This document shows, piece after piece, positions 1 to 30,070 of a stretch of 64,000 nt of DNA. Numbering within the stretch: the stretch's first letter is position 1; the number at the start of each line of letters is the position of its first letter. A program made the translations under genes and the position numbers. The notes under the pieces are model-generated. The model searched no databases. It saw only the letters and a list, made by a program, of their open reading frames with translations, and had not been told where the DNA came from. This DNA is from Dipteris shenzhenensis (taxonomy: Eukaryota): assembly GCA_047967505.1 (NCBI GenBank), contig CM106538.1, one strand, 5' to 3'.

Positions 1-480
1 GGTTAGCCGCGATCTGCTCCTTGGCAGCGACCTGCTGCCTAGGTTGTGCAGGTTTCCCTGCAACGCGTCGCCTCCCCTTGCCTGCTCGAGTTGCGCCTCC
101 TCTCAGCCCGTTTGGCTGCTGCAGGGGCGCCCTAGTGGTCGAGCCCCCCTTAGCCTGTTCGCGTTGCGCCCCCCCCTTCAGCCCGCTGTGCAGGTCGCGC
201 CCTGCTGTGCCTTCTTCAGGTCGCCCCTTCTGGCTGCCTTCTAGGACGCCCTTCAGGCCGTCAGTAGCTGCCGTCTGCCCCCTCCCTTGCACCTCAGGTT
301 GGGCTTCAGGGCCCTCTTCCAGGACTGTTCTGCGTGAGTTCCAGGGAGCTGTGTTCCTGGGCTGCTTCCAAGCATTGGCGGAGGTTTTTTTTGTTTCTGC
401 ATTGAGCGGTCTGTTGTCATTCCTCGCAGGCTGAAGTTGGGAGCATTCTTTAACCAGGGGGTTTTTTGGGATTCTAGTGG

Positions 481-10169: not shown

Positions 10170-11445
10170 CCTAGGGTATCCACCTCTGACTTGCTATTTC
10201 CGTTTTGAGCCTCACACTCAAACTCGATCTGCCAGTATGAGGACTCTTGATGCTCTATATGCAAAGGAGGATCTTTCAGTGGCAGTTATGTAGATTTGGG
10301 ACTCCTACTTGCAAGATGGTTTGGATTCTCGTTCTACTTCGACAACAGCTCTCTCTAATGTTAGTGACTTTTATCTCTCCATTTCTAGGCCTAAGAGACA
10401 GGATATCCTTAGGAAGAAGGTTGCTATTCGTCAACAATTGGCAAACCTACTAAGGGAGAGCATAAAGGACCCTCAGATGCCTTTGTCTTTAAGAGCCTTG
10501 CTGTAGCAATGGCTCACCAACATTAGAGAGTAGATCTGAGCTTTTTATCATGCATGGGAGTCTTTCTAGATTCAGATGGGGGGAAGAATCAATGAATACT
10601 TTTTCTCTACTCTTGGTCCTAGAGATGGCAAAGAAACTGTTTCTCATTGACTCTTGGGGGATTTTGCAGTCAGATCCAGATGTGTCATGCATATTGCTCC
10701 AGATTTATATGCTTCCCTCCTTAGCACAGATCCTAATACAACTGATAGAGATAGTACCAGATTGAGGGCTTGGCAGACAGTCTCACTCTTTGTGAAATAG
10801 ATATTAGGATCTCTCCTAATACACTTTTACCAGCTCGAAATTCAGGACTTCTTTACTTGCCTTCATATGGTAAATGCTCAGGTTCAGGTGTTCTCCTTTC
10901 TTCATTTCCTTTTGGGAGTACATTTGTGATCATCTCACCTAGGCTCTGCAGAGCATATGAGACTTTGATGTTGTACCTGCTTCACCTAATGAGAGTCTCA
11001 TGCCATCCTTGTCTCTCAGTGCACACTTACACATGCATCAATGGACATTAGCTGGACATTGTAGCGAGCATCAGTGCTTGGCACATTTGGAGTTCTAGAT
11101 GCAAAGAGGCTATTGATGGCACCCAAGTCCACCAAGCTCATACCTTGGCCAGTATATATGTAGATAGTGTACATGCTCTAATGGCTATTTGGTTGAGGAT
11201 GCAAGGATCGTCTAGGTCTGCTTTGGCTAGGAGGCCAATTTTTCTTAGAGTGTGGAGAGGTTGTCCTTTCTTTTCTAAGGACATCGCAGGCATGATGTGG
11301 CATTTCCACTGTTGAGCCATTTGAGTGGTATTTTCCTAGGGGTTTTTCATGCTTCGCATGATGTATCTATGCCTTGAGTTTCTTCTCTTGGCTGTTTCTT
11401 TCATACTTAAAAAGAAGTCTATTTCACGCAAAAATAAAATAAAAG
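10170..11445 (+). mobile_element. Internally deleted L1 remnant (post-endonuclease linker joined to the 3' end) with A-rich tail
   Basis: 10309..10506 (RQDILRKKVAIRQQLANL) resembles 37600-37700; 11050-11330 resembles the family 3' end (tggcacatttggagttctagatgcaaagaggct); A-rich tail at 11409-11444. Confidence 0.7.
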
Positions 11446-11499
11446 TAGGAAACTTCTTTTCCGAGATTCTCAAATTGTATTTACCAATTGTTTTGACAG

Positions 11500-11591
11500 G
11501 GTATTGGGAAGTCTGCAAAAGCAAAAGAAGTTGAAATGGAGCAATACAGATTGGATATATCAAGACTAGCTGCAAATGAAGTCGAATTGAG
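11500..11591 (+). CDS. Host gene internal exon A (coiled-coil protein): GIGKSAKAKEVEMEQYRLDISRLAANEVEL(R)
   Basis: Acceptor ttgttttgacag, donor AG/gtaata; 92 nt, phase 0 to 2, joins exon B in frame. Confidence 0.85.
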
Positions 11592-11689
11592 GTAATACTC
11601 TTTGCAGAATCTGAAAAGCAAAACGCTTATCGGCTATGAAGTAATTTTTAATGCCTGTGCCTACTATCTGAATTTGTTTTCTATCCCAG

Positions 11690-11786
11690 AACAGAGAATG
11701 AGAGACTGAAGAAAGAATTGGATATAGCTCTTTCCAAAAAGGAAGCAGAAGTGTCAGCCTTGGAACAAGTTGAGCGCTATAAAGAG
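11690..11786 (+). CDS. Host gene internal exon B: TENERLKKELDIALSKKEAEVSALEQVERYKE
   Basis: Acceptor ttgttttctatcccag, donor GAG/gtaaca; 97 nt, phase 2 to 0. Confidence 0.88.
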
Positions 11787-11885
11787 GTAACAATTCAAAG
11801 AGCATGACAAATATGTTTGCCATTTGTAAGAGTCATCATGGTCCTTGTTTGTTTTGCTGATAGCAAAATTCTTTTTTCCTTTCAG

Positions 11886-11930
11886 GTCATTGCACGAGTC
11901 ACAGCTGACAACATGGTTTTCCTCATGAAG
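11886..11930 (+). CDS. Host gene internal exon C: VIARVTADNMVFLMK
   Basis: Strong acceptor ttcttttttcctttcag, weaker donor AAG/gtgttt; 45 nt, phase 0 to 0. Confidence 0.8.
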
Positions 11931-12198
11931 GTGTTTATGAATTGTATGCAAGAAACACCCATCACAATTGAGTATTTTCTGTGGAATGAGCTGCGAAAGT
12001 ATCTTGTAAAGATGCTATTACGTGCAAAAAATGACCCCACAGTCTGCTGATGAATGGGCTGCAGAAAATATTAGACATGAATCTAGATGGATATCTAGAA
12101 TTAGGAATGATCAAAGTCTCATGAAAGCACAAAACAAAAGTGTAATTTAGCCTCATCATAGCCACCCAGAGGAATACAGCCCATCAATCCGAACTTAC

Positions 12199-12682
12199 AA
12201 TGTGGAGACTTCTTGCCTCTGGCACACATTTGCCTCATCGCATCCAACTTTTCCAATACTTCCTGAAAATTAGAATACAGCATTTATAATAAGACACATT
12301 AAACATTTTAGACCGTTGCCACTCTTTAACAGTTCTTAACAAATGAGCTTATAGAAAGACAAAAGTAAAGGTTGCAAATAAGTACTTAATAGACCTCAAT
12401 CATTTTAGTGCAGCACATCCATGTGCATTTATATTGATAAGTTCATTCCTTTGAGCATACAAAATGTGTAAAATGTTATAGAGGAAGAAGGGCAGCAGGG
12501 GAATAGAAAGGCCTTGCGGCCAATGTTAAACCAATCTTACAGCAGAGCAACATATAGTGCACTGGAGTTATTGCAGAAGACATTGGCTAGGGGCAACCAT
12601 ACAGAGTGAGATCTACAATGCATTGGAGAAGAGACCCTATGGCGGATGGCCAATGGAGAAGCAAAACTGCAGGGAATTTTAT
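12199..12682 (-). ncRNA. Candidate antisense exons (12541-12682 and 12199-12262), probably non-coding
   Basis: Minus-strand acceptor ttgactattttatgcag (12683), donor gtaaga (12540), acceptor ctaattttcag (12263), donor gtaagt (12198), next acceptor ctaatattttctgcag (12059). Inferred from splice signals only. Confidence 0.35.
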
Positions 12683-13349
12683 CTGCATAAAATAGTCAAC
12701 GAAGATTACCAAAAGACTTTGTTTGATTGCTTATTGTGGCTGTATTGGCTCTCATTGGGATGGTCTCCGTCAGGAGGCATGACACGCATTCTAGATTTTT
12801 GTGGACTCGGATCTGATGCCTCTCTCAACAGGTCCTCCTCATTGCAATATGCTATTTCCTCCTCGCTACCTCACACTTTGCTAGAGACCTACGCGAGGAG
12901 GCTGAGCCAGTGAGACTTCACAATACGCAGCCCTATACACGGAATCTGGATTTCTCGAGCCATGGGGTAGTCCTCCTTGTTGGGTACACCAATATGAGCA
13001 TGGGCATACACCAGGTATCACTTTGGATTTTTGTGACATCTCTATTTTATTGCCAGATGTCGATCTAGATGAGGAAAGGATATCTTGAGTTTTTATAGAC
13101 AGGCGAGAGCCCCAATCAATCCTCTTGGACATGGGCATGATACATGATCTTGTCATTTATAATGGTTTGGATCAATGACCCTTCTCGGGTGGATTCACTT
13201 GTTTCCCACATGAGGTGGAGGGGGGATTGCAGTGTATTTGACTACCTCATGGGATCTCCTACCTTCACCTCGCATATCGTTGACTTCTCTGCCTCGCCGC
13301 CAACTCCAAGAGCTGATCATCTCTTCTCTCATTTTTGCATCCCCGTCTT

Positions 13350-14277
13350 TTTTTTTTCAAAGAAAAGGCGAATTCTATTAACGCTTGAGAAAAAACCATA
13401 CAAACAGCTTCCGAAAGCAGCTGCAGATGAAAAACAAAATGGTTGCTAGCTATAGGGAAGCCAGCCTGTTGTCTCACGGCTCATTGCCTAGAGAGATTGT
13501 GAAATGGGAGCTAACAACCATGGTGGTGGTCTATACATCTAGCAAATACCCTTTGTGGAAAGAGTGTAGAAAATTCATGCAGGCCAGGCCTTGCGGAAAC
13601 GCTCCAGCCTTTCGGGGTCGCTCTCGAACCTAGATTACCACGCTCCTAGATAGCGCACAGGGTGAAAATGATGTTCTGCCAAAGGGCTACTAGTATGGCC
13701 ATCGGGAGACTAACTCGCCTCCCATCACTCGACTGCACCGAGCGACCCAGGTGTTCCAAATAGTAATGCTGGAGACTGTCTCCTAAATGCTATACTCTGG
13801 TATGTGCAGTGGGCGTGATCGGCAGGCGGAGATGTGTCATGAATCTTGATCCGAGAGACTTGCTATCCATGTACCTTGTACATCGTGAGGCCGGATCAAT
13901 CGAGAAGACCTCCGTGAGCCAGGCTACCATCCCCCAGGTGAAATCCTTCATCCTCCTCTGCGTGCTAGCCACAATCGTAAGGGATGCCAACCATACTTGC
14001 TATGCTACCGGGCACCCCCCCATAGGCAGTGGGGAGTCATCTCTAGAACTCCTTTTGGACAACAAATGCATCTGCCATCTACCCACATCTACTCCAACCA
14101 GGGGTCAATGGGCAGACCCCCGCGAGTCATCAGCCAAAATAAATAGGAAATCTTGTGCGAGCATAAGCTCCTCCAAAGGCGAGGCCAAAACCGGAAAATA
14201 ACCTCTCTCAAGACGTCCTGCTCCAGCCAATGGTGCTCCCTCGAGGGCGTGCATGTTGCTGCCTTGAGCTGTAAGTA
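13350..14277 (-). mobile_element. 5'-truncated L1 with target-site duplication
   Basis: Poly-T at 13348-13357; ORF2 C-terminal remnant (FRKAWPA, as at 19350..19592); TSD ttttgcatcccc(c)gtctt at 13333-13349 and 14278-14295. Confidence 0.85.
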
Positions 14278-15035
14278 TTTTGCATCCCCCGTCTTATGAT
14301 ACACACCACAACACCGCCTACCCACACTATATATCATGGTACACACTTTAATCATAGCCTCTCCCATGAGTACTCTGCACACCTTTCCACTCTGCTCCTA
14401 GAAGATCCAACTGCTCTGATCATTAGCTCCCTCCGTGAGGCTGCCCTACACACCTTCACACACATATCCGCTCCACCCACCCATTGCCTCTTGGCTTGAT
14501 AGCCTGCAATAGGTGGTACGATGATGAGTGTAAAACTCTATGTTGTCAACAGAGATTCGAGACTAGTATCACCTTTTGAGTAAGGCACAAATGATACACA
14601 AGTGTCGTCGTCTAGTCCACCAAAATTAGCAGGCCTTCATTTGCTAGAATGAGGAGTTAATGGAGGTGTTGATAACTCATGCGGGGTGATATGTGACATT
14701 TTCTATTTCCATTTGCTAAGCATGTTCCCATACTTGGCAGCATGGGGAAGATATGTTACGATGAAGGGTGTTCTAATGTGTGAAGATGTAACCCCACTTC
14801 ACCATGGAGTCCAGAGGAAGATGGAGAGTTGAGGATTTATCTCAACATCATGTATTCTTACTGTGCATACTAACACAGAGAGTGCTAAAAAGGCACAAGC
14901 GTTGGAAACTAATATAGAGGGGTATGCATCATTCTTTTCAACTAATATAGTATATAGTTAGTCATTTTTGGTGTGTTTTCTAGTAGAGACCTCTCTCATC
15001 TCCACTCTTCTCCTCTCCCTCTTAATGTTTGTTCA

Positions 15036-15047
15036 TGGTATCAGAGC
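15036..15047 (+). other. LTR-retrotransposon primer-binding site (initiator tRNA-Met), after a probable LTR ending in CA at 15035
   Basis: TGGTATCAGAGC directly after ...gttca. Confidence 0.8.
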
Positions 15048-15379
15048 TCCCTTGAATTCCACTAAGGCATTGCAATCTTGTGAAAGTATGAGTGAGATTG
15101 AGATTGAGATAGTTCTTCGTTTGCCTTTTACGAGAGTTTCTTTGTTCCACTGAGAGATTTTCATTAATTTATTCAATCCGTTCGCTCTCTTCATGTATGG
15201 GAAAGAGAGATTGAGAGATAGTTCAATCCTATCCTATTGAGAGAAAGAAACGAAGAAATAAAGTTTATTAAAAGTCTTTTAAAGATATCTAGCTGTCCGT
15301 ATTCCTGCATTCCTCTTTATATCTCTCATCTTGCCTTAAACCTCTAAAGGCGGAATTTATCCCATTTGTATAGGCCTTT

Positions 15380-16250
15380 AAGATCACATAAGGTCCTTCC
15401 CTCATCCCTTTCGAGAAAGGTGGCATAGATTTTGTAGGGTCCATATCCCCTCCATCATTGTCTATGAAAATCTATATCTTAGTGGCTACAAATTACTACT
15501 ATAAGTGGTCAGAGGCAGTAGCTACCCATAAGAGTGTTGTGGTGAGTAGGCCAAATGCCTACTAGATCAAGTCATTTGCAAGTTCAAAGCCGGTAAGAAG
15601 ATCGCCATGGACCACTTCATGAATGACCTCATATAAGGAATGGTCAAGCAACTTTCCATTGTCCATTGAGCTACCACACCCTATAAGCCTACGGAAAATG
15701 GGTAGATGGAAAGCACCAACTATGTCCTAGGGGTCATCCTAAGAAACAAGAGGGTCTCACACTCAAAATTGGGATAAAAAAGATCCATAGATTGTGTGGG
15801 CATATAACCTTTACCTACAACAAGGCCACACAATTTTGTTGTTTTTCCTAGTCTATATTACAGAGTGCCATTAGGACAGCCTTAGAGCAAAACCTTGGGG
15901 AATGCAAGGCAACATATCACACATTTCTTCCCTAGATGAGCATAGGTGATGAGTCTACTTAAATGCTCTCACCATGAAGAAATAGCAAAAAAATATCATG
16001 ACAAAAGATTATCAATATCCAGCTCAAGGAAGGTGACCTAGTTCTCTGTTTTGATCCTTGACTCGGGCTGTTTGCCACTAAATTTCAAAGCCTCTAGCAA
16101 GTGCTGGTGCAAGTAGTCCATGTGGGATCAAACACCACCATTCGATTGAGATAGATAAGTGGGGAATTTCCCCACAACAACTAACTTAAACAAAAGTAAA
16201 ACTCTATTAGACACGATCCAAGCAACCCCCTAGTGCATGAACTTGAGAAT
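15380..16250 (+). pseudogene. Heavily decayed Ty3/gypsy integrase
   Basis: Recognisable PFE(KW)GIDFVG, VATNY..KW.EA and TTPYKP..NG..ESTN motif remnants with many frameshifts. Confidence 0.7.
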
Positions 16251-16329
16251 TGATACCCCCTCCCTCGACATGAGAGAATAGTATACTAAAGAAAACCTCA
16301 GCTTAACTAAAAGTTTGGATAGCAGGATC

Positions 16330-16900
16330 TGATAAATCTCGCCCCTTGAACGTGGGGCCATGACCTGTTACTATCTAAAGGGCACCCAAACTATGAACAA
16401 ATGTTTCTACCAAGAAATTGTCTACCGCTTTAGGGTTCGTCCCACTTGGTAACAAAATATGTAGCCACTATGATATACTTTTTCCATGACGGGAGTGTTG
16501 TAGATCGAGCCCCCACTTTTTGAAAGGGCCTAATCCACGAATGGGGTGTAGCGGGCCCCTTTTAACTCTTTTCCCCCAAATCCTGAGAGGTATGGCAAGT
16601 GGTACATCATTCCTGAATATCTCTATGGATATTAGGCCAAAAGTACCCTGCTGCAAAACATTCCGAGCTGTAACCTCGTGCAAAATGGCCACCATAGATA
16701 TTTTATGAGAGACTTCCATTATTTTTGTGCTTCTGCTTTCCCAATCACTTTTCATAGCACTGAGTCTTTTCCCATTCTATCTTATGTATCCCCCAACAGC
16801 CTATAAGGTCTTTCCCTCACAAGTAACTTTGTTATTCGTTTTTAGTCATCTTCTCAGCAGGTGATTGAGTGTCTTGTTGTGCACTTGCCAAGTTCCTTGC
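16330..16900 (-). pseudogene. Decayed Ty3/gypsy integrase N-terminal/core fragment, opposite orientation
   Basis: ORF 16468..16755: VTARNVLQQGTF...GPLHPIRGLGPFKKWGLDL. Confidence 0.75.
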
Positions 16901-17049
16901 ATGTGACATATTACCAGCAAAGAGTCCTCATAGATACAAGGCTTACGGACCCCTATTTCTTGGCTGTGTTTCAAGCCATGTATTGAGGACAAATACTCAG
17001 CTTCATTATCTGAGGCTACGGAGTTTTATTTCTTTCCCCTCCCCTGCAA

Positions 17050-18450
17050 TCTCATGACCATCAGGGACTGTACATGCAGGGTTAGGAGAAGGGGAGACCA
17101 CTAACTGCACATCTGCAAGCATGCCCCAGGTGGATCAGAACTGGCAGTATCTCAACATTGGGACTAAGGACCAACCTCAGCATCTGAAGGTAGCTAGTTG
17201 GGGTTGGGAGCATGATTGCCTTCTTGCTGCATTAACTGACTTTTTCCAAGAATATGTGGATGTCTTTTGGTTGGTCACACACATATTTAAAGGGAGTCCT
17301 GGCTGAGTTCATGGAGCACCGCATCTACTTATACCCAGATGCAGACCCAGTGATTAAAGGGTCATCCCGCATGAATCCCAACTATGGTAAGGCAGTCCAA
17401 GTTGATATCCAGAAAATGGAGCAAGCAGGCCAAATCTACCCAATGAACTACTCTGATTGGGTCAGTAGAATTGTAATTGTACCCAAGAGAGAGACATGCA
17501 AACTCCACGTGTGTGTTGACTATCGGAGTTTGAATACTGCCACAAGACGAGATCAGTTTCTGCTTCCCTTCATAGATAGGGTGCTAGAGGTAGTGGCGGC
17601 TGGTCATGCTCTGTACTTCTTCATGGATGGATATAGCGGGTACAACCAAGTAAGGGTTCAAGGGCAGGATCAATTAAAGACCACCTTTGTCACCCAGTAA
17701 GGAACATATGCCTATAGAATGATGCCCTTTGGTCTGTGTAATGCACTGGAAACATTTCAACATCTTGTCACCAAACTGTTCCAAGTGAATATTGGGAAGT
17801 TTCTTGAGGTATTCTTGGATGATTTCTCGGCTTTCAATGGTAAGAATGCCTCTCATGTCGACCCTGCTGTACAAACTGATTACATCAATAAGTCGAGATG
17901 AGTTTTTGACAAGTGCAGAGAAGTCCGGTTGGGCTTAAATCCTAACAAGTGCTTCTTCCTAGCACTGCGAGCGGTTCTCCTTAGCCACATTGTCTCGGCT
18001 GAAGGAATGACTACAGATCCAGCTAAGGTGGAGGTGATACTCACCTTGCCCATTCCCCGCACACCCAGAGAAGTGAAGTCCTTTTTGGGGCATGTGGGTT
18101 ATTACAGAAGGTTCATCCGGTTCTATGTTGACATCACAGTGGCATTGACAGAACTCCTCTATCAAGAAGAGTCTTGTCCATACCTCAGCAGCTAGCCTTC
18201 GACAATCTCAAGGACCGTATGGTGAAGGCATCCATTCTATGACAATCCAACTGGGATGTCATTTTTTCATGTACATGTGGATGCCAGTGAACTAGCCATT
18301 GGTGCAATATTAGCCCAACTTGACCCAGACCACAAATTAGACTTTTGCCAGCAGACAATTGAATGGAGCGGAACAAAACTACAACACTACAAAACGGGAG
18401 GGTGTAAGCATCGTGTATGCCATGACAAAGTACCAACATTATCTCTTGGG
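17050..18450 (+). pseudogene. Ty3/gypsy reverse transcriptase and RNase H remnant
   Basis: WVSRIVIVPK, CVDYRSLN, MDGYSGYNQ, KTTFVT, MPFGLCNA, FLDDF, KSFLGHVGYYRRFI, FHVHVDASELAIGAILAQ (ORFs 17254..17700, 17719..17901, 17929..18195, 18256..). Confidence 0.92.
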
Positions 18451-18469
18451 CAGTGTTGTACTTTTACTA

Positions 18470-18760
18470 GTCAGACCTTAGTCACGTGGGGTCATACCAT
18501 GGTCGAACCTTGTTCACACCTGGGTCATACCTTGTTCACATCTTGGTCACTGGAGCAACATGTCAAGGGTGATCAGACCTTGGTCACACCTGGGTCACAC
18601 CTGTTCACATCTTGGTTAGTGGTGCAACATGCCAAGATCGTTAGACCTTTGTCAAACCTGGGTCACACTTTGTTCACATCTTGGTCAGTGGAGTGACATG
18701 ACAAGGATGGATAGACCTTGGTCATACTTTAGTCACACCTAGTCACACTTCGGTCATTCA
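18470..18760. repeat. Degenerate tandem repeats of GGTCACAC/TGTTCACA motifs (higher-order unit about 68-70 bp)
   Basis: Recurrent gaccttggtcacacctgggtcacac..tgttcacatcttggtcagtgg. Confidence 0.8.
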
Positions 18761-19207
18761 GTACGGGACTAGAGTGATACATGAATAGGCCATGACTGGA
18801 GCATTACATGACTGGAGGAGTACATGTCTGGGCATGTCAAGCATGGACTGACCTTGGTCAAAGAAGATCCACCCTTGGTCAAAGTAAAGTACTGGAGCAC
18901 TGGATTGAAGCAGTAGTTAAGGGAGCCCAGGTGGTGCATATGGTGGTACACATAGAAGTTGTGCCACCGGTTGAGCTCGCCACCAACTAATGTCAGGTGC
19001 ACATACGTCAAGTAGTAACTAGGAGGGCACGACAGGTTACTCATCCAAATAGCAGACAACGATCCATTACGGGCTTCTTGCCTACACAGCCCAGTCCACC
19101 CGTTGGGTACAGCTTGATGTTCTATATGCCTATTATATTGTATTGGATTAGATTGTGTCCCCACATGGATTCCAGGATAGCTGTATATGATTTGATGGAC
19201 ATGTGTT

Positions 19208-19597
19208 TTTTTTCTTCAAAAAAAGGAACCTTCTATTAATGCTTGAAAGACTTCATACAAAACAGTAGCCTTGAAGGTGCTGAGTATGGAAAAACCGAGA
19301 AAAGCCTGAAAGAAAAAACCGCCTGTTCCCGAGAAACCCAGCTCAGTGCCTAGGGGATCTCTGGTACAGGGGCTAACAACCAAGTGGGGGGACTATACAA
19401 CCAGCGAATCCCTCGTGGAATAAAGATGTAGAAAAATCTTGCAGGCCAAGCCTTGCAAAAACGAGCACGCCTCTCGATAGTTGCTCTAGAGGCTGGAGTC
19501 CCACGCTCCCAGGTAGAGCGTAGAGTGTAGATGATATCCTGCCAGATGGCGACCAAGGTAGCCGAGGGTGGAACCGGATGCTCACCAATCACGAGAC
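19208..19597 (-). mobile_element. Short 5'-truncated L1 (about 390 bp) with a perfect 16-bp TSD
   Basis: TTGATGGACATGTGTT at 19192-19207 and 19598-19613; poly-T at the left; ORF 19350..19592 is the L1 ORF2 C-terminus (IWQDIIYTLRSTW...WLYSPPTWL). Confidence 0.92.
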
Positions 19598-19619
19598 TTG
19601 ATGGACATGTGTTATGATA

Positions 19620-20871
19620 TCATTAACTTTGTCTACACAATTTTCTAGCATGGGTTAGGATGCTCGCTTAGTAGCTGCACCCTTTTGCTCATTGTATTAG
19701 GTTTTTCTCTAGTCTCATAGACCCATCGGTCTTTAGCAAACTTTAATAAACTTTCTTTCTTTCTTTCTTTCATCCAACATGACTTCAATTCTATCCTCTC
19801 TTTCCCTACTGCTCTCCCATCCTCTTTAACCCCCACATCTTCTATGTTCTCACCCTTTCCCTTCTGCAACACTGAGGCCCTCCGCGTATGTAGTACCATC
19901 TGTGTACACATCCTCTATGGCTACACCAAGAGTGACTTCACCATTGTGGTCCTCTGCAAGAGGGGTCATCTCATCCTCTATAGCATCCACATTTATTACT
20001 GCTCCATTGGGAGCTTCACATGAGAGATAATTTCAGGCACATGCTGAACCATTGGCACCTCCTGCATCATTTGTGACAATCTTAACTGCTTCCTTTCCTT
20101 CTCTTTTGCTACCTTGAGAGCATCCTCATAAGTGACCAGCTCTTTACATTCAATCTTTATCCTAATCTCCGGCTTCAGACCAGCAACAAACCTATCCTTT
20201 TTTATGACTTTGGGAGGAACTTTAGGTAATAAGGCCCCCTGCCATTTATTCCACAACACAGTGAACTTACCGACATACTCATCCACTAATTGAGTCGGCT
20301 GTTGCTACAATAAACATAGCTCTCTCCAAATGCCATCAGGATCTCTAACACACATAAACCTGTCTAGGAAAGCTCTCCTCACCTCTGGATAAGTCGGGTT
20401 TCAGTGAGCACCCTAATCATCACGCATCCTTGCAGAGAAAGTTTGCAGCCAAGTTCTCGCTTCTCCCAACAGACAAAAGAATAGAATCTGAAGAAGGAAT
20501 TCTAGAGCATTCCTGTCTTTAATAAGAACTGTGAACTCCAAGCACTCAAAAAACCTCTCTGGGTCTTCATTGGGCAACCCGTGAAATCGAGGAAATTCAT
20601 GAGCCATCTCTCCTCTTGACTAACTTATCTCAAACACACTCCCAACCAAAAATACTACCCAACCTCTTCTGGGAAGAAAACAAAAATAATCACTCTACTG
20701 AAGAAAACTTACCCTGCATCTGACTGGCATTCTTCTTCCTAAGAGCAATCACTTTCAAAGCCTTTTGAACCTTAGCACGGAGACGTATCACCAGAAGTTC
20801 AACATCAAAACATCTATCTCTCCTATGTCCACACTCCCCACGTAACTCACAAATCACTCTCATGCGAGGCT
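19620..20871 (-). pseudogene. Ty3/gypsy gag remnant; its upstream sequence continues at 23413 onward, past the L1 insertion
   Basis: ORFs 20413..20607 (FPRFHGLPNEDPERFFECLE...LLGEARTW) and 19996..20286 (DEYVGKF..LW...KKDRFVAGLKPEIR) match retrotransposon gag capsid patterns. Confidence 0.8.
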
Positions 20872-20886
20872 TTGTCTTCATAGTTT

Positions 20887-23412
20887 TTTTTTTTGCAAAA
20901 AAGAGACTTCTATTAAGTAAGAAAGAAACTCGCTAGAGCAAGCTCTGTGCGGAAATACAACATGCTAAGCATGTAATAAAAAACACCTCAGAGCAATGAA
21001 GTAGAAAGAAACCAAGGCTGAGGTTGAAAATGCCAACTCAACCCTATAGAAATCTCAGCAAAGAAGGGAGAGTCTCTCCAATCGCTGAGAAAAGTAACTC
21101 TCCTGGAGGAGGCTGCTCGAGATGATCCCTGCATGGTCGCCCAACTGGCCATCAGAGTGTGTACCGTATCTGTCCAAGTAGTGGCCAAGATCTGAGAAGG
21201 GTGAACCTGAGAACCCTCCAAAGCCTCAGTGCATCTGGCTCTCCAAATGTGCCATGCAGCAATGCTAGCTAAGACCTCCCATGGAGAATCGACCAAGGAA
21301 TGAGCAGCCTTGAAGAGAGTGGCCAAAACATCCTCTAGAGAGCACGAATCCACAAGGTGTCGTCGGATATGAAGAGTCGAAGAGGAGTCAAGTCTCTCAA
21401 AAAAGACTTGGGGCCCTAAAAGAGTAAGCCAAGCCACTGATCCCTAGGTCATATAGAAAGGTAGGCGAACAAAACTGCTAAAAGTCTTGCAATCCCCTTC
21501 CATATGATTCTCGCCTGTTTGCAATCCCAAAGGCAGTGCTGTATTGTCTCCAAAGCAGAAAGGCAACGAGGGCAAGAAGGGTCAGCTCCGAACCTGGATC
21601 TCCAATGGTTTACTGCTATCCCACCATGAATAGAAAGCCAAAAGAAGAGAGTGATTTTTCTATTCTGGTGGGATTTCCAGAGCCTTTGCCAAAAAATTTT
21701 CTACAAGTCAGCTGAAATCTGAAAGTTCTCCCAATGATGAGCTCTGGTAGGCCTCCAACCCATATAGCTGAGCTGGAATTTTCTGGCATTACTAACCGTG
21801 TAACGAAAGAAGGGATGCCCTTCTCTCAGTGCCCTTCATCTATCCATTCCCATTCCCCAGGGTCCCACTACAGAAACTTGGGACACCTCCATAGAGCCAC
21901 AGCCTCCATGAGCCCAGGGCGATGAGAAGCGGGTTAGGATCCAAGTACTATTCTGAAAGAGAGCCATATCCATGAAGCCCACTATCCTGACGGGCTGAAA
22001 CGGTACCTCCAACAAGATATCGTCTGTGGATTTGGACAGCCTGCCCCCCGAAGAAACATCAAAGACTAAGGCATCCTCATGTGTGTCATGAAAAGCAATC
22101 ACTTGTAAAGGAACTCCTAGTCTGGAAAATGCCCCCATCCAGGTGGAGCAAGTAATAGGCATGTCATCTGCCTCCACCCAATCCAAGGGCAAGGCTGCAT
22201 CAATCTGTCGGACTCTCCCTGCACTCCCTCTGAGATTAAGAACCATCTGGGCCTATTGGTCTGCAAGAAGCTTCCTAAAGGCTTTCCATGCTTCCATAGT
22301 AGATGTAGGGCCCCTCTCCCATCTTGGCCACTGCATGTAAGGAGAAGCTCCAAGTGGTCTGCCATGCTCATCCAAAATCCTGTCATTCCACATGATAGGC
22401 TGCCTTTCAATCTCTTCACGGGTGGATGGGGGAATCCTGCGAAGAGTACTCCTGAAGCTGGCCCATGCTTTCAGGATAGCAACCATAAGAGGGGAAGGGG
22501 AAGAGGAAGAGGAAGATCTGAGGTGGGCTGTGGTGAAAACCCATCTGGTACTGTGTGTCCAATCCTCTCCTGAAGTGGGCGTGTGAGACTATATGCATTT
22601 GATAAAGAAATCCTTCCAAGGCTCTTGCCTTGGCATAAGTCCTCTCACAATGACCTTGCAGAGTAAAGCTCTGCACTGTAGATCCGGGTCGACGATATTC
22701 AAACCCCCTTCTCTTGTAGGAAGAATCAAGGTCTCCCAAGCCACCCTGGTTGTAACATCAGATGTGCCATCTAGACCACTCCATAAAAAGTTTCGTACAG
22801 GCCTCTTAAGCTGAGTGATACAATCCCTAGAGTGGCATCAACAAGAGCAAACAAACCAAGCTATGGCTAGAAGAACCTGGTTAACCACCACCACCCTGGA
22901 AGCCAAGTCAAGTTTGGCTGAGCTCCAGAAAAGGAGCTTTCTTCTGATGCTCTCCAACACCGGAGCAAACTGTTGTGAAGGAGAGATGCCCACCCCAACC
23001 TGGCAGCCCAAATATCTAACGGAGACGCCCCTCTATACCCAAGTGAAGCCAAAATCAATACCCCAATCCGGGGTGTCATCATTGCAAATCCAAAAACCAT
23101 TGGATTTATGCCAATCAATGTGTGCGCCTGCAGCTGTGCAAAATAAATCCAAGGCTGTCCGGAAGGAAGTGAGCGTCCTGGGGGAGGCATCCAAAAAAAC
23201 AGCCGTGTCATCTGCCAACTCACTATCTAGGAGCTCTTTTTCCCGGCGGATAGGAAGCCTCAGCCCATAAATATCAGCTTGAGATCTAATGTAGATACTC
23301 ATAGCTTCCGCCACAAACAGAAAAAGAAAAGGGGCAAGAGGACATCCCTGGTGGACTGATCTAGAAATCAGAAAAGGGGGAGGGCAGTAGCTCACGGGGA
23401 GAGGAGCAGCTC
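20887..23412 (-). mobile_element. L1 (second family), RT 3' half to poly-A, internally deleted, with 15-bp TSD
   Basis: Poly-T at 20884-20894; SVHQGCPLAPFLFLFVAE, LADDT and WHIWRARC motifs; TSD TTGTCTTCATAGTTT at 20872-20886 and 23413-23427. Confidence 0.92.
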
Positions 23413-24075
23413 TTGTCTTCATAGTTTCAATCCCTAACCACACAGAAATTCAAGCAACATTCCCTAGCCAATCTTCTGGGCCGTTCTGTCTTGAGTACCC
23501 AATCTCAATTCAAAACTCCTCCTGTCCCCAGCAGGATCGCCAAAAAGATGATAAGGAAAAAAATGGAGAAAGACAACCAAGAATTATGTACTTCACCACG
23601 TCAGATAGCGGGGGTGAAGGAGGGGGGCGGGGGGGCTGGCGGGTGGGAGAGAGGGAGGGCGGGGAAGGAGAGGTAGGGGGCAGCGGGGAGGGAGAGGTAG
23701 GGGGCAGCCGGGGGGGAGAGGAAGGGTGAGGGAGGGAGGAGGAAGGAGAGAGGGAGGGTGAGGGAGGAGGGAGAGGGGGCTGGCGAGAGGGGAGGTAGAG
23801 GAGGAGTAGTGAGGGGGGGGAGAGGGGGGGCAGCGAGGGAGAGGGGGAGGGCAGTAGCTCACCGGGAGAGGAGCAAATCCTGTCTTCATAGTTTCAATCC
23901 CTAACCACACAGAAATTCAAGCAACATTCCCTAGCCAATCTTCTGGGCCGTTCTGTCTTGAGTACCCAATCTCAATTCAAAACTACTCCTGTCCCCAGCA
24001 GGATCGCCAAAAAGATGATAAGAAAAAAAAAGGAGAAAGACAACCAGGACTTATGTACTTCACCACGTCAGATAG
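23377..24075. repeat. ~232-bp direct duplication (23377-23608 and 23844-24075) separated by a G/A-rich tract
   Basis: Near-identical gggagggcagtagctcac...cttcaccacgtcagatagc in both copies. Confidence 0.95.
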
Positions 24076-25590
24076 CTGAGACTTCATAGGGCTCGTAGAT
24101 GATGAGCTTATGCACCAGATTCTAGAGTATGTGTCTTTGTACTAGACACCAAGACAAACCCCCACAAAAACTGATTGAACATGGATCACACAAACTCAGA
24201 GAGAACCAAAAGACTACACAACCCGAAACATATAAACTTAGAACTGAACTTCCCCCCCAAAACTCAGAGAACAGTTAGCCTCAGAATACTATGAACCCAC
24301 AGCCCACACCCCTAAGCTTCCATCAAGAACAACAGCTCGTAATTCCCACAAAGCTGCAATAGTGCCACCTACAATCCTTCAAATGATCTAAACTAGACCA
24401 TGCATTCTCTCTGTCATGCCTGTGTGGTAGCCATGCTCAGCCAACTACAAACAGCTCGCTATCTCTGGAGGTCTCCAACGCCAAGGTCTTCTCAGCACAC
24501 ACAAGCTCACAAAACTCCTTGGTCAAAAGCGTCTCTACCCTCAGCCTTGAAACGATTGTGTGCCCTGAATACCAATCAGCTCATGTTCTCGCTGCAGCAC
24601 CTTCGTCGTCTATCTCCTTCACGTAAAGGTAGCCAACTCTACAGCTTCTCTTCCCTCACAAAGCACTCGGAACTCACGGCCCTCTCCAAACAAACTGTCC
24701 GTGAAGTAGCGACACCCTTTCACAAAAAAAACTCCAGCCATCGTCAGACTCCCTGTACAGGATCTTCGAGCTGCTTTCACCAAGCCACAGTATTCCTTTC
24801 CTCAGCCGGCATCCTTACGATTCCCACAAAGCAGTCATCTACCAAACCACTTCTGATAAACACCTCCAACAAGAGCCACGGCCTCTCAGTTCATGGAGCT
24901 CACAGACTTTCATCAAGGTTCACACACTACAATAGCTTCCTCCTCATGGAACACACACGTCGCCATGGTCTCCGGCTTTCCTGTAGAGACCCCCCCAGTG
25001 CAACGTAGATCCTTCCAGTGTCAACCCGATCAGCTCCCAGCCGCCATCTTCATGTAGCTCCACTCGTCAGCCAGAGCATCCCAATTCTCGATCACGTAGC
25101 CACCTTGCATGTGCACGTTCCCTTCCATATTTTCCAGCCACGTCATCATGTGGAATTTACCACTCCCATAAAAAAAATGCAAATACCCCCCAAGGCACAT
25201 TAAATGCACATTTTGGACCTTTGGTCACACAATTCCCACACACATTAGCATGCACATTAAGACTTGCATGCACCCCCATAAACCCACATGAAAAGCCCCT
25301 TGGCATGGGCACCAAAACATATCAAATTCCCGTAACATGCAAGACCGTGTTGACTCAGGAAAATATTAAAAAACCCTTCATGACTTAACTTTACATGACC
25401 CCAAAAACATTTCACTTGACCACACATTGGACACCCTTGGTCTGGAAGTTTGGTACAACCACATTGCATTTCATCATTTCCCATGAAGTCCCTGCAAAAC
25501 ATACTTTATTGTCTCAAAAAACTATACATCAGTCCATCGTGCTTGTGAAAGAAAAATCCACAAATGCCAAAAGCCCACACCTACCCTAGA

Positions 25591-26560
25591 TGTGTACAAC
25601 TATGTGCCTACCCATAGCTATATACAGTGGTCAACAACTTGATACAGGTTTTGTCCTATCAACGTTTCATATTGGGAGTTATCCCATATACATTTGGTAC
25701 TTAGTGTGTGTGTGCCTATCCTATAAAGGCATTGTACTTGTCACTTGTCAAATCACTCAACCCATTTAAATACAAGCTACTTTGGTCTACATGTGAGTAC
25801 TTGTTCATTGCTTTCATTTCCTTTCCATTTTATTTCCATTTCATTATGTTTGCTATCTTTCCTTTTTCGTTCCTAGTGTTAGCTTGCTTCTCTCCCTACC
25901 ACTATGTTCCTTCATGTGGTATCAGAGCCATGTTCCTAGCCTTGTCTCTCCTTCCCTTTCCAATAGGTTGAGGTGAGGGAGGCCAATGAAGCTACCCACC
26001 CACCATACCAGTTGCTCTGTTTCCTTTTCGTTCCTAGTGTTAGCTTGCATTTTGCATTTTTTGCATTCTGCATTGGTGTGGATGCTCGTTTTAGTAGCTT
26101 CAACCTCACAGTTTGTTTGTACCAGGATTTTCACAGTCTCATAGACCCATTGGTCTTCCGAAGACTTTAATAAACTTCCTTTCTTTCTTTCTCCCTACCA
26201 CTATGTTCGTTCACGGCCACTACCAAGATGACTGTACACAACCGTTCGGGGGGATCCTATTGTACACAATGCAACACAAACTACCACTACGCCAGAGATT
26301 GTCCCAATGGCAGAGGGGAACCAACATCTCAAGTCAACATGGTTGACGTAGTAGTGGTGAGGGAGGGTGACAAACCCCATTTGATTGGTGCAGTGTTGGG
26401 AGCTGTGACAAGGTCACAAACGAAAGGTGAAATAGTATGGATGACTCAACACCAACACCAGAGGCCTCATCACCGGCCAGTACCAACTCAATCAAGAGGT
26501 GTATCCGCACCTCTTTCCTCCAAGGTGGACAGTGGGTGCAGAAATGCATCACCCAGTTCA
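25591..26560 (+). mobile_element. LTR-retrotransposon remnant: probable LTR (about 25591-25914), PBS (25917-25928), gag zinc knuckle
   Basis: TG start, ...ttca then TGGTATCAGAGC; ORF 26228..26638 has YCTQCNTNYHYARDCP and AVTRSQTK. Confidence 0.7.
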
Positions 26561-27840
26561 AGTCACATGACAATAGATGTCAAACAACTGGTCACTGGTC
26601 GACCATGTCAACCAATGACAACCATGTCACTGGAGTGACGACCATGTCAACCAGTAAACGACCATGTCAACAATGACCACCATGTCAACCAATGACAACC
26701 ATGTCTACCAATGACGATCATGTCAACCAATGATAACCGTGTTAACCAGTGACAACCATAACCAGATGACAACTTGAGACAACCATGGCCACTTCTCACT
26801 TTTCTACAGAAGCAATCACATGTGACGACTGTCATCATTGCTGCATGACAACAGTGCACATGGTGGTGATAACAATGCACATTGTGGCGCAGAGGGAGAC
26901 TAGGAGTTAGAAGCGCTAGGAGACGCACATGGAGCAGTCAAACTAGCTAGAGGTGCACATGGAGGAATTAGACCAAAGGGGCTGCACATGGAGTACTTAG
27001 CCACCCACTTGGAAGAGGTTGGTAGTGGTAGGAGACATCAAGGACAAAATGGTGGAATGGCTAAGGAGACAGGAAGACAACCAATAGGAGCAAGGGAAGG
27101 AGATTTCCAACGAGAAGAAGCCAAACAGTTAAGAGGAGCTGATGAGAGGGGATTCAGGCATTCGAGCAGAGGGCATTTTGGCATTCGATCATTGAGCATG
27201 AGTGGAGAGAGCGAGGCTGGAGTCACGAACTCGCCTGGTGAATCTTTGGTGTATCTGCTATTGAGTGTATCTCCATTAAGTGTATTGGTCATTTCCATCT
27301 TATGTGCTATGCTCCCTTACATCTCTGTTTGCAGCTCTAGCACCCCTTCATTGTGTGTCCCCTTCCCTTCACTTTCCTTTAGTTGGTACGGAGGACCGTG
27401 GCTTGAGCTCATCCTTGTCCACGTTTAGGGATGGCTCTTGTGAGTGTGTTTCACTTTCGTGCTTATTATTGAAACCATTGTCCACTCGATACTCGTTTGC
27501 CCTGCACTTGCACCATCTCACAGGTACCACTGTCACTTTCACCACTGCGTGATCGATTGCACTAACGTTCATGAGGAAGACATTAGTAGTTCCGCCTCAA
27601 CATTCGTCGTGACACGCACTCTTTGCATCTCACACCAAGGGACTTACGCCTTCGGTAACACCTCCGACAATGATCGGACGTCCCCTCAGACAACGACAAG
27701 GCTTTTTCTAGGTGGCTTTTGATTCTCTGCTGGCTGCCAGCATTGCTACAGTCTAGTTATTTGGCACTTGGTTCCAACAGGATTGTTCTCACTCTTTTCA
27801 CCTTTGGGGATCGATCCGGTGTAGAGGAGAACAGACGGGT
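26560..27840 (+). mobile_element. LTR-like segment related to the LTRs at 50484 and 54823, starting with short GACCATGTCAACCA tandem repeats
   Basis: Shares ggtgcacatgga and ggtgg.atggcta.gga...caaccaatag.ag..aggga motifs with 50918-51025; repeats at 26565-26790. Boundaries approximate. Confidence 0.55.
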
Positions 27841-28068
27841 TACTTTACTCTTTATCAGATTCCCTGGTTGTCCTTAGGTTTGCCATTGACTTCTTGCCAC
27901 GATAAGAGCATACTTTCGACTGGTCATAGAGCTCCCCTATTTCCCTTTCTTGGCATTCTTGTAAGGAGAAAGAAATATCATACAGTCTGGAGATATGTGT
28001 ATTTCTTTCTTATTCCAGTAATATTTAGAAGACGCATTTGTAATATTTAATTGTTTTTTTGCTCTCAG

Positions 28069-28131
28069 TTGAAACAAAGTGAGCAAGCTTTACAAGCTGC
28101 CCAGGAGCAACAATGCAGTCTCACTAAGCAG
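28069..28131 (+). CDS. Host gene internal exon D: LKQSEQALQAAQEQQCSLTKQ
   Basis: Acceptor ttgtttttttgctctcag, donor CAG/gtaaga; 63 nt, phase 0 to 0. Confidence 0.9.
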
Positions 28132-28263
28132 GTAAGAAATTTGTGTGTGATATAGGCATGCAAACAGAGACCTTATCATCATGAGCTTAAACCTACCTCT
28201 AAGATAAGATTAATATCTTTGGTTTTCTCACTATTTGTATATGTGGAATAACTTTCAGTACAG

Positions 28264-28341
28264 CTGGAGATTGACAGATTAAAGTTCCTAGAAGAGATTT
28301 CCGCTGAGATTGAAGATACTGTGAAGGCAAGTTTGAGCAAG
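28264..28341 (+). CDS. Host gene internal exon E: LEIDRLKFLEEISAEIEDTVKASLSK
   Basis: Acceptor ctttcagtacag, donor AAG/gtatgg; 78 nt, phase 0 to 0. Confidence 0.85.
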
Positions 28342-28459
28342 GTATGGCCAGTCTGTTAATTGGTATTCATAGAAATGACTTATGCCATTGCATAGAACGT
28401 TTAAGTAAGTTATTATTATGCTCTTTCTTTGGGGAATTTTAATTCTTCTAGAGCCTCAG

Positions 28460-28584
28460 GCGGAAGCTTGTGAAACGGAGCTGCACAGTCTGCAAAAGGA
28501 TCATGAAAAGAAAAAGAAAGAATGGCAAGATAAGATCCAAGAAGCAAGAGAGAGCCTAAATCAAACCACTGCAATAAAACAAAG
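28460..28584 (+). CDS. Host gene internal exon F: AEACETELHSLQKDHEKKKKEWQDKIQEARESLNQTTAIKQ(R)
   Basis: Lies within ORF 28418..28663; acceptor cctcag. Donor most likely AG/gccagt (GC, phase 2); alternative GT donor after 28588. Confidence 0.8.
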
Positions 28585-29044
28585 GCCAGTTAGTCCATTC
28601 CTCAATCCCAGTTTACTTGGTGATTATTACGTCTTTCTGAATTATAGAAGGGATGAACGATAGAAAATGGACACTGGTATTATGATCACAAAGTTAAAAG
28701 ACAGATCGACATAATGTGTTGGTAATTTACTCCTAAGGCCTCACTCATTAGTACCTTGCAAGCACACATGGAATTGCTTCTTAACAAGAGCAAGCAGCTA
28801 TATTTGCAGCTTGAACTGTTCATCTTAGAAGAAAAGGCATGTGTACCTTGCTACTTTCTCTCTTCCTTTGTGATGTGTTGACAAATAGGGTAGCAGGTTT
28901 ACTCAGGGTTATATAAATCTCTGTTTTATCATTTGTGGAATAAATATTTGCCTCATTCTAGATATTGCCAATGAAATCACTATAGACTTGCAAAATATTC
29001 AAGTACAGCAATCTCTAATTTTTTGGTAAGTTTCAAACTCATAG

Positions 29045-29192
29045 ATTTAAAAAACAACGTTGCAGACTTAAAGAACTAGAAGATGAGAGACTACAAATTT
29101 TAGCGAGACTGGATGCAGAGAGCAAGAAAAAGGAGGATGCTGTGGCTGAGATTCATACACTTTATGATAATATGAATAAACTAAATGAGCAG
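29045..29192 (+). CDS. Host gene internal exon G: FKKQRCRLKELEDERLQILARLDAESKKKEDAVAEIHTLYDNMNKLNEQ
   Basis: Branch-like ctctaat at 29013-29019, acceptor ctcatag (alternative tgcag at 29065, same phase), donor CAG/gtaatg; open heptad-like frame. Confidence 0.82.
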
Positions 29193-30070
29193 GTAATGTA
29201 ACCCTAAATGATGCCATACCTTTAACTTCACAATTCAGAGCTTTTCAATTTGAGTTTGGTACCCTGTTTATAACTCACGCCTGGCTCTCTGTAGCAAAGT
29301 TTCAATAATCCTGCATTTGTATTTATTTATAAACCTATTTTGGCATCAACTCCGATTGAGTTTGAATGAACTATCTTGTATCATACTAGTGTTATGTAAA
29401 ATCATCCTTTTCAGCATCAAAGCATCTGATTCAATATACGAGTCCCTTTCTCCTTGACAAACGATGTTAGAATTAAGACTCCTGAGCTGATAAATTATTG
29501 TTTTTACTTGTTCGTTTGTTTTCTTTCGAGAAGGAAGATCCTGAAAAAGTCTTACTTTTTCTACTATTCACCTCCCTTTTTCTGGTTGCCTTCTTCTCAG
29601 CTTCTTTTTATTGTCCTCTAGTTATATAGAACTACAAGACCAAGGGCTTCATGTAATTTTCATAGCAGCTTCTCCTTAAAAAAAGGAGTTGTTCCTACAA
29701 TTGCAAAGGATTAAAAAATGTATGAATTAGTGAAACAGGGAGGCGGGGAAGGGTGGTAAGGCAATGAAAGAGGGGGGCGGGGTGTTGTAGAGATGTCTCT
29801 CTATTTCATCTTTTCACCTAGGAAATTTGTTGAATTTTTCCATTGAAAAATCAAGGAATCTTCAATTAGGTTTCTCTTATAGGTCAAGTTATGTGTATGG
29901 AATAAGTTGTCGAGAAGGGCCCTTATAATAGGTCGATGACAAGTACTGACAAGAAAATTAATGGAGGAATTACGTGAGTACCAATATGTCCCCATTCTAG
30001 ATTGATGATGAAGGGTCTTCCTCCTCCGTCTAAGATGCTCTGCAGTCACTACCTAGTACCTAGGCCCTTG

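Follow-up and report, generated by a model that had tools for sequence, protein, structure and literature searches.

Background for the locus considered here comes from the large genomes of ferns and cycads and from gene families of plants with swimming sperm. Ceratopteris has 17,745 introns longer than 10 kb, its long genes being ascribed to transposon insertion into introns (PMC9477723), and introns average about 30.8 kb in Cycas, which has kept its flagellar genes (PMC9023351). A screen of families specific to plants with spermatozoids lists 31 candidate groups (Koshimizu et al., bioRxiv 10.1101/2021.07.25.453666). Here we consider a stretch of 64,000 nucleotides (nt) of DNA from Dipteris shenzhenensis (contig CM106538.1), which we call the window. 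An initial annotation proposed that it hides a host gene, with seven small exons of a coiled-coil protein on the two sides of a long intron. We argue that the window very probably contains the central part of a single, ordinary protein-coding gene of the nucleus, on the + strand, of a land plant with a large genome.

On this reading seven internal exons (11500-11591 to 29066-29192) would be joined, and five short introns and one 16.1-kb intron would be removed. The 16.1-kb intron would have been enlarged by decayed retroelement and repeat insertions. The last intron, with a weak GC donor, would sometimes be left in. The encoded piece would begin in the last part of a disordered linker and continue for ~190 residues into a long, unbroken alpha-helix, whose heptad periodicity would make it a coiled-coil rod.

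Gene structure

The seven segments first proposed are 92, 97, 45, 63, 78, 125 and 148 nt long. Joined, they make 648 nt that translate without a stop into 216 amino acids (aa), as had been claimed, and stops abound in the remaining two frames. An AG precedes every one of the seven segments, so the canonical acceptors stand. Six of the seven donors are GT and one, after 28584, is GC. The lengths given for the introns hold too, both the 16,138 nt of 11931-28068 and the short ones (98, 99, 132 and 118 nt). GC content is 0.40 in the exons, 0.33-0.36 in the short introns and 0.46 in intron 3. In the following rows numbers with P are related proteins, and X1 and X2 are runs whose contigs were mapped on the window.

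11500..11591 (+), exon 1 of the window (internal), 92 nt; AG acceptor, GT donor
11592..11689 (+), intron 1, 98 nt, GT..AG; joint in contigs of X1 and X2
11690..11786 (+), exon 2, 97 nt; profile match, tblastn matches to P0005, P0008, P0009 and P0011
11787..11885 (+), intron 2, 99 nt, GT..AG; splice contexts, relatives unbroken here
11886..11930 (+), exon 3, 45 nt, 15 aa; profile match, carries the most conserved motif of the family
11931..28068 (+), intron 3, 16,138 nt, GT..AG, repeat-rich; relatives unbroken across this point
28069..28131 (+), exon 4, 63 nt; profile match, matches to P0005, P0008 and P0013
28132..28263 (+), intron 4, 132 nt, GT..AG; splice contexts, relatives unbroken here
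28264..28341 (+), exon 5, 78 nt; profile match, 86% identity to P0004 over 29 aa
28342..28459 (+), intron 5, 118 nt, GT..AG; joint in contigs of X1 and X2
28460..28584 (+), exon 6, 125 nt; profile match, 63-65% identity to P0004 and P0008
28585..29065 (+), intron 6 as revised, 481 nt, GC..AG; donor AAG|gccagt, acceptor ttgcag|
29066..29192 (+), exon 7 as revised, 127 nt; profile match, gapless against P0005 and P0004 only with this start

One boundary had to be moved. The initial annotation began exon 7 at 29045, and its acceptor was 21 nt off. Read from 29045, the exon leaves a gap of 7 residues against both P0005 (128/203 identical) and P0004 (76/118). Read from 29066, behind the acceptor at 29064-65, it gives 128/196 with 1 gap against P0005 and 76/111 with 0 gaps against P0004. 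Because the 7-residue gap against the relatives vanishes, exon 7 most likely starts at 29066. The codon split by the revised 28584/29066 junction is Arg, which matches KQRLKELEEER in P0004, and the revised product is 209 aa. A cut after 28584 joined to 29066 is the only combination that keeps the frame and fits the relatives. There is a GT donor 4 nt downstream at 28589, but we rejected it since the frame then runs into a stop with either acceptor.

The protein family

An exhaustive phmmer search with the 49 aa of exon 7 found five proteins at E<=0.001 (P0002-P0006). Only one of the five is named, a fern protein, and none is named as a seed-plant protein. Word-indexed protein searches with single exons gave one chance match for exon 7 (E 0.37, 38 candidates) and nothing for exon 6 (8 candidates). 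A further search used P0005 as the query and covered proteins of 247-788 aa, taking the 8000 candidates that share most words. It found 12 proteins at E<=0.001, 11 of them named and 1 unlabelled: 3 from Adiantum, 2 from Ceratopteris, 1 from Calypogeia, 2 from Riccia, 2 from Selaginella and 1 from Marchantia besides the unlabelled one. All 11 names are 'hypothetical', 'uncharacterized' or 'unnamed'. A homology search with the spliced peptide had been suggested as a check; the searches with exon 7 and P0005 bring up a family whose named members come from ferns, Selaginella and liverworts.

P0008: Adiantum capillus-veneris GOP47_0015935, 456 aa
P0005 (450 aa) and P0007: Adiantum nelumboides L7F22_060668 and L7F22_062009
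P0009 and P0010: Ceratopteris richardii KP509_24G027500
Liverwort relatives: Calypogeia fissa, Riccia sorocarpa, Riccia fluitans and Marchantia polymorpha AXG93_48s1140
Lycophyte relatives: Selaginella SELMODRAFT_416485 and SELMODRAFT_431556

Aligned over 205 aa with 1 gap, the 209-aa peptide and P0008 share 66% of their residues (E 1e-75), and identity to P0010 is 57%. Over shorter pieces it reaches 72% to P0011 (78 aa) and 68% to P0004 (111 aa). Three liverwort proteins are more distant, at 38-42%, as are two from Selaginella, at 34-39%. P0005 and P0008 have the exon 3 motif, VTADNMVFLMK, without any change. The central signature motif, VERYKEV.A.VTADNMVFLMKLKQSE, which is found in P0008 and P0012-P0014, is carried by exons 2-4 of the window, and its exon 3 part does not differ from that of the ferns. 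A tree of 10 sequences places the window with the ferns against Selaginella (97/95), outside P0004 and four Adiantum/Ceratopteris proteins and sister to them. Taken by itself, this position would fit either a further fern lineage or a different euphyllophyte whose sperm swim. Judged by these sequences, the gene of the window belongs to an annotated but unstudied land-plant family (P0005, P0008, P0010, P0012-P0015). Our literature search found no paper on the family and none with any of the five locus tags searched.

One gene across both exon clusters

The exons lie in two clusters with 16 kb between them, so it is worth considering whether they belong together. We built a profile of the family from alignment A1 (ten members, 459 positions) and ran it against the 3533 six-frame open stretches of at least 10 codons in the whole window. 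The stretches of exons 2-7 match at E 2.9e-13 to 3.5e-5, in strict order, over positions 183-371. Exon 2 covers positions 183-222 (E 1.6e-10), exon 3 221-236 (E 5.2e-7), exon 4 232-257 (E 3.5e-5), exon 5 253-283 (E 7.3e-11), exon 6 282-323 (E 2.9e-13) and exon 7 327-371 (E 1.8e-11). The best unrelated stretch of the window has E 0.17. The exon matches are far beyond chance. A tblastn search of the relatives against the window agrees with the profile scan and places all seven exons on one strand and in order. It also matches exon 1 to residues 171-200 of P0011 (53% identity over 30 aa).

One can imagine a scenario where the two clusters come from different genes or transcripts, or where the open frames are there by chance. 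No contig is shown that joins both clusters, which would fit such a scenario. However, seven full-length relatives (P0005, P0007, P0008, P0010 and P0012-P0014) read unbroken across the point of intron 3, with the same exon order and no overlap or gap, and a profile match as low as E 2.9e-13 among 3533 stretches does not look like chance. P0005 holds the equivalents of all seven exons and reads VTADNMVFLMKLKQSE straight over the site of the 16-kb intron. The contiguity of the relatives argues that both clusters belong to one gene, and it makes separate genes or chance frames very unlikely. The initial annotation would have been given up if the clusters had matched different proteins; all seven exons match one family, in order.

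Some intron positions can be read from isoforms and from mistakes in the annotation of relatives. In P0007 a stretch of foreign sequence sets in precisely where the equivalent of exon 7 ends. The Selaginella and Marchantia models P0015, P0016 and P0017 have mis-read read-through inserts at the exon 3/4 point. The matches to P0011 and P0003 end in Val, as they would from reading into a GT donor. Of the two Ceratopteris forms, P0010 includes the 15 residues of exon 3, and P0009 is without precisely these. Where they are readable in this way, intron positions are common to the window and its relatives. As a separate matter, P0009 and P0010 share one locus tag, and this suggests either regulated skipping of the 45-nt exon or an annotation miss.

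Transcript contigs

Public contigs from X1 and X2 were mapped on 11400-29300. The two runs come from different organisms and different studies. X1 has a share of 0.26 of the 28.0-29.25 kb stretch and was guessed to be RNA, and X2 has a share of 0.14 and was guessed to be DNA. One contig from each run joins 11591 to 11690, skipping 98 nt with GT..AG ends, which is intron 1. The shorter side of the X1 contig there is 92 letters, the length of exon 1. One contig from each run also joins 28341 to 28460, skipping 118 nt with GT..AG ends, which is intron 5. The spliced contigs are ~97-99% alike to the window in both runs. Of the 15 joints listed, out of 21, the other 13 fall between 13.5 and 25.9 kb, in the part rich in repeats, and none of these 13 has GT..AG ends. 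The junctions 11786/11886, 11930/28069, 28131/28264 and 28584/29045-29066 are not among the 15 of 21 joints listed, and we do not count this as evidence. The same goes for X5 and X6, each matched by one short repeat piece, with several intron bins lacking cover.

The initial annotation wanted its junctions checked against transcripts, especially 11930/28069. The contigs join introns 1 and 5, and the long junction comes from homology only. Its claim of a hidden host gene is nonetheless borne out by exons that are colinear in one family and by splicing at two of the six junctions in public contigs.

Intron 6 needs separate treatment. Its first 185 nt (28585-28769) are present in contigs, and the contigs of both runs end within 4 nt of each other. 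Record 8 of X1 (178 nt, 2 differences) spans 28588-28765 and is inside the intron. So intron 6, which has the weak donor AAG|gccagt, is retained at least sometimes. We found no donor and no AATAAA where the two contigs end (~28765-28769). Retention of the intron could account for these contigs, as could an alternative 3' end or a difference in sequence between species.

Arguments against a single working gene

Several points weigh against our reading of the window as the middle of one working gene, and we gather them here. Record 16 of X2 (439 nt) is spliced at intron 5 and then runs through the GC donor of intron 6 to 28769. A frame read through that intron stops near 28661. Productive splicing of intron 6 therefore rests on homology, and read-through may give a truncated product that does not have the conserved C-terminus. 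The 28584/29066 junction is presumably used, and so is the 11930/28069 junction across the long intron; homology is the sole basis of both. If the runs are DNA, a retrocopy would be the source of the joints, and this would speak for splicing at these sites and not at this locus. Exon 1 is weak in the profile scan, though colinear (E 0.69, positions 158-183). Finally, nothing in the 64 kb of the window matches profile positions 1-157 or 372-459.

The last point concerns how much of the gene is here. The exons of the window correspond to about residues 169-372 of a ~450-aa protein (P0008 numbering). Neither the C-terminal motif QLETQ..N..LMKKKEE.EW nor the N-terminal helices have a match in the window, and their exons may lie outside it. 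The initial annotation saw no first or last exon, and the profile scan and tblastn over the window agree with it. With both ends of the profile unmatched in the window, the flanking introns must exceed 11.5 kb on the upstream side and 34.8 kb on the downstream side if the gene is more than a fragment.

A fragment is worth considering. In that scenario the exons are a stranded piece or a pseudogene, and the first and last exons were lost or moved by repeat insertions. The first ~157 and last ~88 profile positions that go unmatched in 64 kb would fit this, and so would the retroelements on both sides, one like a long interspersed nuclear element (LINE) at 0.5-5.6 kb and one Copia-like at 43.5-46.4 kb. 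However, neither a frameshift nor a stop interrupts any of the seven exons, the splice signals are intact, the most conserved motif has not changed by a single letter, and closely matching spliced contigs occur in two runs. Introns of more than 10 kb are also common in such genomes (PMC9477723, PMC9023351). The first four of these points speak for a live gene. We consider a fragment improbable and infer that the rest of the gene lies outside the window.

Two open stretches were examined as possible missing exons and rejected. The open reading frame (ORF) 53924-54310 (+) encodes a 129-aa coiled coil, and it reaches E 0.17 with the profile at ~22% identity with gaps. The 70-aa open stretch at 10294-10503 (+), upstream of exon 1, has a charged part that looks helical, and it has no Pfam or family-profile match. 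ORF 53924-54310 also matches Pfam SHE3 below its cut-off (E 2.7e-5, 24.4 bits against 30).

A predicted coiled-coil rod

The initial annotation called the protein a coiled coil, and the composition, the periodicity and the predicted structure all agree. The 209 aa contain 0 Pro and 2 Gly, and E, K, L, A and Q make up 59%. The hydrophobic periodicity of 3.5 residues has z = 3.4, and 4 of 1000 shuffles are as high. An AlphaFold2 model of P0008, made with alignment A1, has helices at 36-62 and 79-149, a disordered part at 150-180 and an unbroken helix at 181-455. This model has a mean predicted local distance difference test score (pLDDT) of 75.8, with values >90 for the greater part of 221-410. 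These results support a predicted long heptad helix of the coiled-coil class for the encoded piece, and we infer that the rod pairs as a coiled coil.

Database searches give the protein no more specific name. No Pfam family reaches its cut-off in 13 proteins of the family. The best matches in the PDB searches are flagellin by sequence (E 0.056) and tropomyosin by profile (E 0.01), which is coiled-coil noise. Foldseek against the PDB has 0 matches at E<=0.001. Language-model look-ups with P0005 and P0013 returned scattered generic coiled-coil families (SDCCAG8, CCDC171, HMMR, TPR and SCLT1), and we rejected them as leads. The centrosomal coiled-coil family SDCCAG8/CCCAP (PF15964) deserves mention since it ranked second for P0005, with a score of 0.94 and 135/256 shared features. 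It is not among the rows shown for P0013, its Pfam profile matches none of the 13 proteins at E<=1, and its 135 shared features are well below the 170 typical of true family hits. We do not consider it a relative.

This leaves a conserved family of ~450-aa proteins that is predicted to be almost wholly helical, with no Pfam model and no solved relative.

The sperm apparatus question

The 11 named relatives are, without exception, from plants whose sperm swim: ferns, Selaginella and liverworts. Because of this we put forward, tentatively, that the protein could be a structural scaffold of the flagellar or cytoskeletal apparatus of spermatids. A fuller version, in which we place the same low confidence, would make it a streptophyte-specific coiled coil of the locomotory apparatus of spermatozoids (basal bodies, multilayered structure or spline), kept where sperm swim and lost with flagella in most seed plants. 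Two points go against it. The taxon list of the limited P0005 search is the sole support for a role in sperm. The same search, limited by words and by length, has no moss, hornwort, alga, Ginkgo or cycad among its 12 hits.

The other route is that the protein is a general cellular coiled coil, a cytoskeletal, nuclear or membrane-tether scaffold with no role in sperm. The seeming confinement of the family to spore-bearing plants would then be due to ordinary lineage loss in seed plants or to an artefact of a limited search. We put the chances of this at about even. No known ciliary or centriolar family was matched in Pfam, the PDB or Foldseek, and the coiled-coil families from the language-model look-ups are scattered and inconsistent, as a general scaffold would have it. 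The taxon list comes from one word-limited search, and the transcript is present in contigs of two runs of unspecified tissue. On the other hand, the heavily sequenced angiosperms are absent from the 11 named hits of that word- and length-limited search. The exhaustive exon 7 search likewise has no protein named as a seed-plant one, with 1 of its 5 hits named.

If the sperm reading were true, the gene of the window would be one of few molecular handles on structures of essentially unknown composition. It would become a candidate component of the plant spermatozoid apparatus if the distribution survives an exhaustive search and the gene is antheridium-specific.

The long intron and the repeats of the window

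Intron 3 has 26 ORFs of at least 100 aa. Pfam was scanned with 23 of them, leaving out 23391-23729 (+), 23510-23893 (-) and 23593-23916 (-). Retroelement domains occur in 4 of the 23, and all 4 are below the curated cut-offs of Pfam. These and the dispersed repeats of the intron are as follows.

14089..14397 (-), zf-RVT-like remnant, E 0.031, 15.3 bits, cut-off 27.5
18226..18696 (+), remnant like reverse transcriptase-RNase H, RT_RNaseH_2 E 2.3e-4, 21.6 bits, cut-off 29.8
19996..20304 (-), Ty3 capsid-like remnant, Ty3_capsid E 2.2e-4, 21.1 bits, cut-off 29.1
23033..23449 (-), RVT_1-like ORF, E 9.5e-5, 22.6 bits, cut-off 29.6
17567..18144 (no strand assigned), dispersed repeat copy, 80.6% identity over 581 nt to 52206-52775
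20971..23374 (no strand assigned), dispersed repeat copies, 72-88% identity to 39.6-41.1 and 47.9-49.6 kb

Contigs that are 85-95% alike to the window pile up on 15.0-15.6 and 19.2-26.3 kb. The repeat search found no repeat pair of the size of long terminal repeats (LTRs) and no inverted repeat. The longest direct pair it found is 235 nt with a spacing of 467 nt. In another pair the 71-nt copies are 6.4 kb from each other, and blastn lengthens the match to 132 nt at 79.5%. Intron 3 is rich in old, decayed repeats. The initial annotation described it as packed with nested retroelements. The intron is repeat-rich, and four remnants can be named. The nesting is not borne out, with no LTR-sized pair from the repeat search and all four domains below cut-off.

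Other repeats were seen along the way. The 235-nt direct repeats at 23375-23609 and 23842-24076 are 96% alike and flank a purine-rich tract of the GGGAGG type at 23645-23851, and a G-rich sequence akin to this tract is found at 63.6-63.8 kb. Intron 3 has tandem arrays at 18507-18756 (69-nt unit x 3.6) and 26600-26759 (19/57-nt unit x 8.3/2.8). Upstream of exon 1 there is a decayed LINE-like element at 478-5615 (+). It has DUF4283 at 478-1107 (E 2.1e-9), an endonuclease at 2772-3626 (E 2.2e-11) and a reverse transcriptase in two frames (3981-4871 and 4872-5615). A Copia-type element at 43476-46435 (+) is in what would be the next intron of the gene. It has a zinc knuckle and a Pol beta-barrel at 43476-44048 and RVT_2 at 45155-46435 (E 8.4e-81). 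Further on, a Copia RVT_2 fragment at 58553-59308 (+) abuts an integrase of the Ty3/Gypsy type at 59357-59983 (-). The region 58553-59983 is likely one element inserted next to or into another.

Comparison with known systems

The fern proteins of Adiantum and Ceratopteris are the closest to the window. They have the motif VERYKEV.ARVTADNMVFLMKLKQSE in common with it, and they are 57-66% identical to the 209-aa piece and colinear over it. The difference is that the window has only the middle of the gene. No function has been described for any of these fern proteins. The liverwort and lycophyte homologues are 31-42% identical to the peptide of the window and keep the central motif, and they share the C-terminal QLETQ...LMKKKEE.EW with the ferns. 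Both groups are much more diverged than the fern proteins, the liverwort ones have extra residues before the equivalent of exon 7, and several of the liverwort and lycophyte gene models are visibly mis-spliced.

BLD10/CEP135, one of the divergent coiled-coil proteins of basal bodies, is a parallel in kind. It is likewise a long, fast-evolving coiled coil of spermatozoid-forming plants (Koshimizu et al., bioRxiv 10.1101/2021.07.25.453666). We liken the family to it by description only, no Pfam family having matched the family here.

The gene structure needs no special explanation. Short exons with one intron of more than 10 kb that holds retroelement debris are likewise seen in the repeat-expanded introns of ferns and cycads, and the window is typical of them. 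A 16-kb repeat-rich intron is ordinary for large genomes of this kind. In practice the locus serves as a worked example of how genes missed by ORF lists are recoverable by eye or by homology. Its structure, short exons and an intron inflated by repeats beyond 10 kb, is routine, as in thousands of fern and cycad genes.

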